Source: Candidatus Norongarragalinales archaeon (GTDB lineage Archaea; Micrarchaeota; Micrarchaeia; Norongarragalinales; Norongarragalinaceae). From it: a stretch of 64,000 nt of DNA. Below are positions 30,001-33,000 of this stretch, piece by piece (the stretch's first letter is position 1; each line of letters opens with the position of its first letter). The stretch covers positions 352,001-416,000 of the forward strand of contig JAWABJ010000001.1 in NCBI GenBank assembly GCA_038884755.1, written 5' to 3'. The position numbers were made by a program.

Positions 30001-33000
30001 AAATCGACAGGAAACGACGTTAGTTAACTTATTAATTCGACAGGGCTTTTGTTTCTTCAACAAGCAGGGGTGGGGTTTTTTGAAATTCGGCAAAGAACTT
30101 TCTTTAAGGGCGTTGTTCTTAGGCGCGTTGCTTTCGGTTTGCGTCGCAGCCTACTCCGCGTTCGCGGGGCTCAAGATAGGCGGGGTTTACTGGCCGATAG
30201 TCACCACTTCGCTCGTTTCCCTCGCCTTGCTCAAGGTTTTGGGCGGAACGAGTTCGAAAGAAATCGCGGTAATGCAGACTGCGGGAAGCTCGGGCGGGCT
30301 TTTGGCTGCAGGCGTTATTTTCACTATTCCCGCCGCTTGGATGCTTGGCTTGAGCGTTACGGTCTACGACATCATCCTGATTTCCCTCACCGGAGGCATT
30401 TTGGGCGTAATGTTCAGTTACCCTTTGAGGAAACAGCTGGTCGAACGCGAGGCGTTGCCTTGCGCGGACGGGACTGCAGCCGCGAGTTTGATTAAAGCTG
30501 GGGATTCGAAAGGCGAAAAAGCGAAGGCTCTTTTCTACGCTTTTTCAGCCGGCGCCGCGTTCAGCGTGCTGCGCGATTGGTTCAAGGCAATTCCCGGGTT
30601 CGTGAATTTGGACACGCTCAAGGTGAACGCGGGAAACTTTTCCCTCGGCTCCGCAATTTCGCTCATCCCGCTTGCAGGCGGGTTTTTGATAGGCCCGCGC
30701 TTTACGCTCGCGTGGTTTTTGGGCGCGGCAGCCACGTTCTTCGCCTTGATTCCCTACGCTCTTTCGACAGGGCTGTACTCGGCTAAAGGGCAGGTGTTGG
30801 CCGAAATCGCCAGGCCGCTGGGAGTGGGAATAGTCCTCGGCGCGGCAATCGCCTATTTTGCGTTGAAAGGCATTCCTGCGATGGGGCGCGTGGTTCAAGA
30901 CTACAAAAACGCCAAGTGGGGCAAGCACGCCGGCTTGCTTTTGATCGTTTCCGTGGGCGTTTTGACGGTGGTTTCGCAAATGGACGCGCTCGTTTCGGCA
31001 ATAGCGATTATCGGGGCTTTCGCAATGGCGTACGTTGCGGCGAGAATCACGGGCGAAATGAACGTAGACCCGATGGAAATCTTCGCCATGCTGATAATGC
31101 TTTTTGCAAAACTGTTCTTGGGCACCGCCGCATTTCCGTTGGTCGTCATCGCGGCAGTGGTCACCATTGCGGCGGGAATGGCGGGCGACATGATGCAAGA
31201 CTTGAAGGCGGGGCATTTGCTTGGAGTAAAGCCCGAAAGCCAGATGGTCGCGCAAACGGTCGGGCTGGTTGCAGCTTCGCTGGTGATAGGCGCGATAGTA
31301 ATTTCGATAAACGGCGCTTACGGAATCGGCGGGGTGGACTTTCCGGCGCCGCAGGCAGTTGCAGTCAAGGAAGTAGTCCAAAGTGCCGGACTCTCGCAAG
31401 TAATGATTGCGGGGATATTGCTGGGGGCGCTCGCAACGATAGCTTCAAGCAAAATCGGCTGGGGCATAGTTCCAGTCGCGTTCGGAATCGGGCTTTACGT
31501 GCCCATCGAATTGAGCTTTCCGCTTTTCATCGGAGGCTTGGTCCGCTACGCTTCCGACAAGGCGGGTAAAACCGAAAGCCGCCGCATTGCCGCGGCAGGG
31601 CTGATTGCGGGCGAAGGGCTGGTGGGCGTGGTGCTGTCGCTCGCCGGCTTCGCGGCGATACTGTAGAAGCTTTCTAAAAAGGCGCATTGCAAATGCTGGG
31701 CATTGACTTCGGCGGGTCGTACGCCGACTGCGTTGTTTCGAAAAAAGGAAGGATTTTGTTTTCCTATTCCACCCCCGCAAAAGACTTCGAAGAGAAAAAG
31801 CTTTTTTCCGAAATCGAAAGCCGCGGATTGCTGTTCGGAGGAATCCGCGTTACCGGAATGCGCAAGCGCCTGCAAAAAAAGTTCAAGCGGGTGGGCGAGA
31901 TTGAAAGCATCGCGCTGGGGGCAAGGGTGCTGTCACGAGAAAAAGATTTTGTTGCGGCTAGCGTAGGAACCGGAACGGCAATAGCGGCGTTCAAAAACCA
32001 AAAGGCTTTCCACGCCGGCGGCACTGCAGTGGGCGGAGGGACCCTAGAAGGGCTTTCGAGGCTGTTGCTGGGCTGCAATGCCGTGCAAGCCCACGCCCTT
32101 GCCTTGAAAGGCAGAAGCGTTTTGGACATAAGCGTCGGCGACATTGCCGGAGGGCGGGTGGGAATGGTCCCCGGAAACGCCACTGCAAGCAATTTCGGGG
32201 CTGCGGCGAAAAACGCAAGAAAACAGGATGTTGCAAAATCGTTGTTCAACATGGTCGGGGAAACGGCGGGAGTCTGCGCCAGCCTGGCCGCCCAAAAAAC
32301 GGGAGTGCGCAAAGCAGTTTTCGTCGGAAGGGCAAGCGCTTTCCCGCTAATCCGCACCAGCGCGGAACGCGCTTGCAAGCTTTACTCGGTAAAAGCCGTT
32401 TTTCCGGAAAACGGGGAGTTGGCGACGGCACTGGGAGCTTCGCTCCAGTGAACGAACGCGGCCCGCGCCCCCCCAAAAAAAACTTTTAAAAACAAGGGAA
32501 AATTAATCAAAACCGTGGGAAGAACGGATTTTGCAAAAGCCTCATTCTTGCTAGCAGCCGTTTCCCTGGTTTTCGCTTTCGGAGGCGGCGGGGGCGGAGG
32601 GGGAGGCGGCGAAAGCGGCGGCGGTGACGTTTTCATAACCCCCAGCCCGACAGTAACCGCAACTCCCTTGTGCGAACAAACCACGCTCAAGGAACGGGTG
32701 AAATGCAGGCTTTCAATCGAAGCAGAAGACGCGCTCCCCTATACGCCCGAAGCGTGCCGGGCTTTGGCCGGCGGGGAGAAAATTGCATGCGTGGCAAAAT
32801 ACAACCTAATCCAACCCTGCAGGAAGCTTGAGGGCGACGAAGAGCGCGTGGATTGCGTAAAGCAAAAACTGCAGTTGCGTGCGATAAGCGAAGAGAAAAC
32901 CCCTTCGTGCTTGAAAAACCGCGCTTGCATGGACAGGCTTAAGCAAAAAGTTTTCGACGTCGTTGAATTCAGGATTTACAACCTGGAAGAGCGGGCCGAA

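Follow-up and report, generated by a model that had tools for sequence, protein, structure and literature searches.

How does an archaeon of the order Norongarragalinales obtain coenzyme A (CoA) when neither CoaB nor CoaC is found in its genome? The question is raised by two adjacent genes in the window (the whole stretch of DNA that was analysed, 64,000 nucleotides in length), one for a membrane protein of the OPT family and the other for a homologue of type II pantothenate kinase (PanK-II). The genome needs CoA, since it encodes a 2-oxoacid dehydrogenase E2, subunits of an ADP-forming acetyl-CoA synthetase and an HMG-CoA reductase; pyruvate:ferredoxin oxidoreductase was also sought in this genome and was not found. 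An initial annotation of the locus had proposed a route in which the OPT protein imports pantetheine, PanK-II phosphorylates it and a fused PPAT-DPCK protein finishes CoA, bypassing CoaBC. We consider it reasonably likely that the pair imports pantetheine or a pantetheine disulfide for CoA in this genome, and very likely that the OPT imports some CoA precursor; both views are drawn from sequence comparison and gene context. The locus comprises the following features.

30080..31666, + strand: OPT/YSL-family membrane transporter, short form (528 aa, TTG start); candidate importer of pantetheine or pantetheine disulfide
31667..31692, + strand: spacer of 26 nt between the OPT and PanK-II genes
31693..32451, + strand: type II pantothenate-kinase homologue (252 aa, ATG start); proposed pantetheine kinase

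These open reading frames confirm that the OPT gene stands directly upstream of the PanK-II gene, 26 nt apart, as initially annotated. The spacing and the conserved gene order suggest that the two genes are co-transcribed. A sigma-70-type scan returned no promoter-like site, which is uninformative for an archaeon.

The transporter was assigned by profile, phylogeny and predicted structure. In the profile search its reading frame matched PF03169 with 195 bits (E 3e-57) and the superfamily model TIGR00728 with 136.6 bits, above the cut-off of 128.35, whereas its score against the long-form equivalog TIGR00733 (153.4 bits) fell below the cut-off of 182.5. A tree of 87 OPT sequences, built by a quick method and rooted at the midpoint, divided into 79 short forms and 8 long forms (638-665 aa); the 528-aa protein lies outside the long-form clade and within the clade of 520-580 aa, and is thus not a long-form member. 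The predicted model (pLDDT 88.7) matched only barley YS1 among the solved structures (7wsr/7wst, TM 0.78-0.79, E 4e-15; next match E 0.014), while comparison of the sequence with those in the PDB gave no match at E<=0.01. By its profile matches the protein is a member of the OPT/YSL family, and its predicted fold is YS1-like.

The kinase assignment is of a similar kind. The reading frame, for which an alternative TTG start at 31687 would give 254 aa, matches the Fumble profile PF03630 (E 4e-17). Its best NCBIfam match is the type II model PRK13317 with 152 bits (cut-off 234), and it scores 87.8 bits against TIGR00555 (cut-off 247.6); because both scores are below the equivalog cut-offs, it belongs to a divergent subfamily. 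All 14 matches in a sequence search of the PDB were pantothenate kinases, with the S. aureus type II enzyme at the top, and the best fold match of the predicted model (pLDDT 95.1) was the pantothenamide-bound S. aureus kinase (4nb4, TM 0.83). Together with the Fumble profile and the fold, the active-site glutamate is retained: E69 aligns with E70 of the S. aureus enzyme, which we take to be the catalytic residue. The position of S. aureus R113, presumably a substrate contact, is occupied by His107 and not by arginine. This replacement was considered as a mark of pantetheine specialisation and rejected, because 133 of 138 relatives have histidine at this position whether or not an OPT gene is adjacent, those in panB/panC operons included. 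Type I and type II pantothenate kinases phosphorylate pantetheine (PMC12406275).

The later steps of the pathway are encoded elsewhere. A PPAT-DUF359 fusion occupies a single frame of 328 aa on contig C2 (65394-66380). Its PPAT domain scores 158.9 bits against NF001985 (cut-off 104), and HNGH stands at residues 16-19 of the protein; the DUF359 domain (E 6.5e-31) also matches the profile of the Thermococcales GTP-dependent dephospho-CoA kinase (DPCK), below its cut-off. The GTP-dependent DPCK TK1697 was itself discovered via a PPAT-arCOG04076 fusion in uncultured archaea (PMC6650551), and the three catalytic aspartates of TK1697 correspond to D204, D223 and D281 here, the sequence context in that paper coming from its primer table. 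The intermediate enzymes were not recovered from this genome, which is in 9 contigs with a completeness of 93.13%: the DFP and Flavoprotein profiles gave no match at E<=1 (controls 14/14 each), PPS_PS and the type III and type I kinases CoaX and CoaA gave none at E<=0.1, and four CoaBC proteins from relatives found no tblastn or profile match, so that neither PPS nor CoaBC of the archaeal de novo route was found. Queries from relatives for ECF S components, PanB, PanC, CoaX and bacterial CoaD and CoaE likewise had no match in this genome. The initial annotation holds on each of these points, namely the reading of DUF359 as a DPCK, now backed by PMC6650551 and the conserved catalytic residues, the failure to find CoaB, CoaC or PPS, and the authenticity of the fusion, which is no assembly fault: beyond the 3 of 14 relatives noted at the time, it forms one full-length frame in 15 of the 63 genomes of the order surveyed below. 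Genes for PanK, PPAT and DPCK are present, and neither CoaB nor CoaC was found at 93% completeness. This is the gene content of the pantetheine shunt (variant Apn), which is defined as PanK, CoaD and CoaE without CoaBC (PMC6593275, PMC12570885).

With CoaBC not found, pantothenate would be a dead end in this genome. Pantetheine is pantoyl-beta-alanyl-cysteamine, a peptide-like molecule and for that reason a suitable cargo for an oligopeptide transporter. The OPT and PanK-II would together open a pantetheine shunt that leads to CoA. The OPT, probably a proton symporter by analogy with its yeast and plant relatives, may import free pantetheine or one of its disulfides, namely pantethine or a mixed disulfide. 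A disulfide would then be reduced inside the cell, where a thioredoxin reductase homologue is encoded. PanK-II, judging from its family, would convert pantetheine to 4'-phosphopantetheine and thereby trap the cargo, and the fusion protein would adenylylate the product and add the 3'-phosphate. The resulting CoA would serve the E2, the ADP-forming acetyl-CoA synthetase and the HMG-CoA reductase.

The evidence for this order of events comes mainly from gene distribution. We surveyed 63 genomes of the order, each at least 70% complete. PanK-II was found in 23 of them and the OPT in 17. In each of the 17, the OPT gene immediately precedes PanK-II and the two share a strand, a wider adjacency than the 11 genomes counted initially; the OPT frame is interrupted in three of the 17 assemblies (G027, G025 and G040). 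True CoaB was present in six genomes. A seventh candidate was rejected as an epimerase; the weak DFP matches in G060 and G074 were an epimerase and a short-chain dehydrogenase. CoaB was found in 0/17 pair-bearing genomes, as against 5/6 of those with PanK-II alone (Fisher p 1.8e-4), and counted by genus in 0/7 against 4/4 (p 0.003), the significance of both contrasts being overstated because related genomes are not independent. The sole genome with PanK-II alone in which CoaB was not found is 82% complete. In the order genomes searched, the kinase thus works alongside either CoaBC or the OPT but not the two together, and this split among PanK-II bearers is the strongest evidence for the shunt. 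Lone PanK-II genes adjoin panB (L155) and panC (L158), which ties the kinase subfamily to CoA synthesis.

The absence of CoaB by itself carries no such weight. In a sample of 261 genomes of the phylum, CoaB was above the cut-off in 17, giving a background absence of 244/261, and its absence from all 19 OPT-bearing genomes (p 0.62 against that background) is uninformative alone because CoaB is rare in the phylum. We rejected it as stand-alone evidence and used only the contrast among PanK-II bearers.

The pair is not confined to the order, and recurs in two other DPANN phyla. The genome collection yielded 54 OPT loci. In 29 of them PanK-II follows the OPT at a distance of up to 1.4 kb, and records bearing the names Iainarchaeum and Aenigmatarchaeota are among these; the gap is at most 300 nt in 21 loci, and in four the genes overlap by 4 nt. 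Forty-one of the source genomes were searched (the remaining 13 belong to the order survey, and one more was a duplicate), and PanK-II was found in 29 of the 41 and true CoaB in none. Among 40 of these genomes, ten are of Aenigmarchaeota type and carry both OPT and PanK-II; PPAT was found in 10/10 of them (one partial and below the cut-off) and DUF359 in 9/10. In 18 further genomes of the 40, mostly of Iainarchaeota type, PanK-II is present and neither archaeal PPAT nor DUF359 was found. One of these, G069, was read whole: it encodes OPT, PanK-II, a bacterial CoaD and an Rpr2-CoaE fusion, with CoaD and CoaE above the cut-off, and CoaBC was not found in it. This is the same salvage logic with different finishing enzymes.

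It may be asked whether the OPT is instead a general importer of peptides, glutathione, folate or metal chelates, so that its place beside PanK-II is inherited gene order and pantetheine at most a passenger. Three branches of the short-form OPT clade have PanK-II as a neighbour, the third being family f30, where the two genes are adjacent in 2/2 genomes, and a fourth branch stands beside PanK-III, which speaks against that explanation. In metagenome contigs, an ECF S component lies within 1.5 kb of 22 kinase genes, with PPAT also present in five loci. There, the order PhoU-like regulator, transporter, PanK-II contains an ECF S component in four loci and an OPT of the second branch in two; that a related OPT replaces the ECF S component beside PanK-II also speaks against a general importer. 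On the other hand, OPTs of known function transport peptides, glutathione, folate and iron chelates (PMC13642987, PMC3061005), YS1, to which the fold matches, is an iron-phytosiderophore transporter, 25 of the 54 loci have no PanK-II in the available flank (five of these with less than 1.5 kb of downstream sequence), and 10 loci lie near an argininosuccinate lyase gene. Since the listed neighbours contain no recurrent peptidase cluster and the OPT never occurs without PanK-II in the order (17/17), we regard a general importer as unlikely.

The finishing enzymes raise another possibility. PPAT was not found in 10 of the 17 pair-bearing genomes of the order. OPT, PanK-II and DUF359 are all present in 10/10 genomes of family f8, and an archaeal PPAT was found in none of them; bacterial CoaD was not found in three f8 genomes tested or in the part of G042 (54%) scanned with our own profiles, which leaves a gap in the f8 route to CoA. 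The nucleotidyltransferases found in f8 were considered as hidden PPATs, but by profile and by inspection they appear to be NMNAT-, FAD-synthase- and RfaE-like. In genus g4, PPAT is not recognisable despite CoaBC in two of three genomes and the presence of PanK-II and DUF359, so that the order may contain a PPAT that profiles do not recognise; an NMNAT-like gene adjoins DUF359 in this genus. In the phylum sample, 10 of the 19 OPT-bearing genomes have no PanK-II that could be found, and all of them fall in one derived 15-row clade of Micrarchaeia. PPAT and DUF359 were present and CoaB absent in the 11 genomes of this clade that were searched, and the single one scanned has a fusion of PPAT with a DUF84 NTPase; neither CoaX nor PPS was found in four genomes tested, nor CoaA in four. 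The OPT might import a later breakdown product of CoA (4'-phosphopantetheine, dephospho-CoA or their disulfides), with PanK-II only rescuing dephosphorylated pantetheine. The kinase-less clade and f8, with its DPCK, would agree with such a cargo, as would yeast Opt1, which also takes the disulfide of 4'-phosphopantetheine (PMC12406275). Yet this genome and 16 relatives keep the kinase immediately downstream of the OPT, as would suit a cargo that arrives unphosphorylated, and PPAT is also present in G115, G116 and G126, members of genus g47 that lack the OPT. For the present genome we find a phosphorylated cargo quite improbable.

A bacterial relative suggests that pantetheine need not be the cargo of the whole clade. 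The closest match in a plasmid collection is a Collinsella aerofaciens OPT of 567 aa, 30% identical to the archaeal protein and divergently oriented with respect to an adjacent type III kinase. Type III enzymes reportedly do not use pantetheine (PMC11487621, PMC12406275). The species is classed as a plain pantothenate auxotroph, its type strain falling under variant A, for which CoaBC is given and a B5 transporter is not (PMC6593275, Table_2). Such a neighbourhood supports a link between the OPT and CoA precursors, but points to pantothenate there. That the archaeal OPT too imports pantothenate, with phosphopantothenate passing to phosphopantetheine through a CoaBC in an assembly gap or through an unrecognised enzyme, is very unlikely: the Collinsella case, the occurrence of the kinase subfamily in de novo pantothenate operons, the 93% completeness of the genome and the unrecognised CoA enzymes implied by g4 speak for it, but CoaBC is easily detected in genomes that have PanK-II and no OPT, and CoaB is missing in 17/17 pair genomes, 19/19 phylum OPT genomes and 41/41 further OPT genomes (overlapping sets), an absence that assembly gaps cannot explain.

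Pantetheine, free or as a disulfide, thus remains our preferred cargo in this genome. More speculatively, the short-form prokaryotic OPT clade may consist of dedicated importers of B5 vitamers, the cargo in each lineage depending on the part of the pathway that it retained: pantothenate with CoaX and CoaBC in Collinsella, pantetheine with PanK-II and without CoaBC in this genome and the other DPANN phyla, and 4'-phosphopantetheine in the kinase-less Micrarchaeia clade. We offer this as a tentative idea of doubtful standing. If it is true, it would provide the first defined substrate for prokaryotic OPTs in the literature searched. Pantetheine would then have its first dedicated importer, and a phosphorylated precursor of CoA would have an importer too. 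Among about 90 predicted pantetheine auxotrophs, known B5 transporters were found in only 12% (PMC6593275), and a 2025 review describes the mechanism of prokaryotic pantetheine uptake as unknown apart from cysteinopantetheine in B. subtilis (PMC12570885). Prokaryotic OPTs were uncharacterised as of 2011 (PMC3061005), and the literature searched contained no later assay of one. The locus names one candidate protein for this poorly known step of microbial metabolism. It also suggests how some archaea with reduced genomes, whose acetate and lipid metabolism depends on CoA, could obtain CoA without CoaBC by membrane import, and not only by direct transfer from a host. The initial statement that CoA comes from the host goes too far: the precursor could come from a host or from the environment. 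In addition, six order genomes, one of them a congener at 83% completeness, have the fusion while OPT, PanK-II and CoaB were not found in them; other supply routes therefore exist.

Each step of the proposed route has a published precedent, and together with the gene distribution this upholds the core of the initial annotation, an importer, PanK-II and a PPAT-DPCK bypassing CoaBC; its claims to priority, a host source and a fixed cargo are not supported. As in the Apn shunt, the kinase, PPAT and DPCK are present, CoaBC is not found and dependence on pantetheine is predicted. Unlike the Apn shunt of gut bacteria, for which the transporter is mostly unknown, the route here belongs to an archaeon and combines a type II kinase and an archaeal PPAT-DPCK with a linked candidate importer. 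The fusion is the same as that which led to TK1697, with the three catalytic aspartates kept, whereas T. kodakarensis makes the precursor via PoK/PPS and CoaBC (PMC6650551), and PPS and CoaBC were not found here.

Three earlier reports make the phrase "first prokaryotic pantetheine importer" an overstatement. In S. cerevisiae, Opt1/Hgt1 imports pantetheine and 4'-phosphopantetheine as mixed disulfides with glutathione, bypassing PPCS and PPCDC (PMC12406275), and probably recognises the glutathione moiety (PMC13642987). It shares the OPT family with the archaeal protein, but is a glutathione/folate transporter of the PT clade with 799 aa that carries the precursor as a conjugate (PMC12406275, PMC13642987); the archaeal OPT is set apart from it by length (528 aa), by its predicted YS1-like fold and by a context that ties it genetically to a kinase. 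TcyJKLMN of B. subtilis imports cysteinopantetheine and feeds CoaA-dependent salvage, so that prokaryotic uptake of a pantetheine mixed disulfide has a precedent; this system differs in being an ABC cystine transporter that is effective only when overexpressed, is unlinked to coa genes and was shown to be unable to carry pantetheine or pantethine (PMC11487621). The nearest precedent for the locus itself dates from 2011, when OPT subcluster 4E was described with two short prokaryotic OPTs, Cce1 and Cae1 (537 and 558 aa), the former beside a pantothenate kinase; a phospholipid substrate was guessed at the time (PMC3061005). We infer that the Collinsella aerofaciens OPT discussed above is the orthologue of Cae1. 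The subcluster resembles the present case in the short OPT and, for Cce1, in the pantothenate kinase neighbour, but the Collinsella kinase is of type III and the available part of PMC3061005 lists no archaeal members of this kind. Our literature search, which covered few subscription papers, found no paper in which a prokaryotic OPT is assigned a CoA precursor, and none on an archaeal OPT-PanK pair beyond PMC3061005. Compared with these systems, the OPT-PanK-II pair is a real and well-conserved module, and the route that it would open is a variant of a known salvage.

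The immediate surroundings of the OPT-family transporter gene (OPT) and the adjacent type II pantothenate-kinase homologue (PanK-II) comprise the following features, in window coordinates:

28173-29102, minus strand: DUF92 membrane protein.
29343-30023, plus strand (as OPT): gene for a membrane protein of 226 aa, separated by 56 nt from OPT, which follows it.
32515-33171: 218-aa ORF whose product is hydrophobic at its N-terminus and contains a run of glycines as well as several cysteines.
36050-39602: cluster of putative genes for ribose-5-phosphate isomerase B, ribulose-phosphate epimerase and two transketolase subunits.

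Neither the 226-aa protein nor the 218-aa ORF matched a family in Pfam or NCBIfam, and the atlas neighbours of the former were hypothetical or lycopene-cyclase-domain-like proteins (0.89-0.90). The enzyme identities in the cluster are how its translations read by eye. Among related loci, a 2H (cyclic-phosphodiesterase-like) gene on the opposite strand lies between or beside OPT and PanK-II at four (L049:7796-8326, L039, L112 and L126), and different inserts occupy its site at the OPT/PanK-II loci of other Aenigmarchaeota-type genomes. One metagenome contig (L060:142-2587) has both a type II kinase of the PanK-II subfamily and a type III kinase, with 850 nt between them.

Two lineages carry the kinase and DUF359, the predicted dephospho-CoA kinase, with no recognisable phosphopantetheine adenylyltransferase (PPAT). 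PanK-II and DUF359 are present in genus g4 (G018, G019 and G020; L262:4310-5295, L305 and L307), two of whose three genomes also encode CoaBC, and no PPAT was recognised in any of the three. An NMNAT-like nucleotidyltransferase gene immediately 3' of DUF359 in G018 and G019 is a candidate for a non-orthologous PPAT. In family f8 (G035-G044), OPT, PanK-II and DUF359 occur together in all ten genomes; no archaeal PPAT was found in these ten, and no bacterial-type PPAT (CoaD) either in the three genomes searched for it or in the 54% of G042 covered by a separate profile search, which leaves a gap in their pathway.

The finishing enzymes are arranged in several other ways in relatives. Three of the Aenigmarchaeota-type genomes in which an AK6-like P-loop kinase is fused ahead of DUF359 (L286:868-1875; L287, L289 and L290) have two tandem PPAT-like genes. 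In OPT-bearing Micrarchaeia that lack PanK (L228:1492-2493, L229-L231), PPAT lies within a 330-aa frame; the single frame scanned is a fusion of PPAT with a DUF84 inosine/xanthosine triphosphatase (PRK01170-like). The genome G069 encodes, at L372:8362-9719, a fusion of the RNase P subunit Rpr2 with a bacterial-type dephospho-CoA kinase, CoaE, and a bacterial CoaD gene directly downstream of it.
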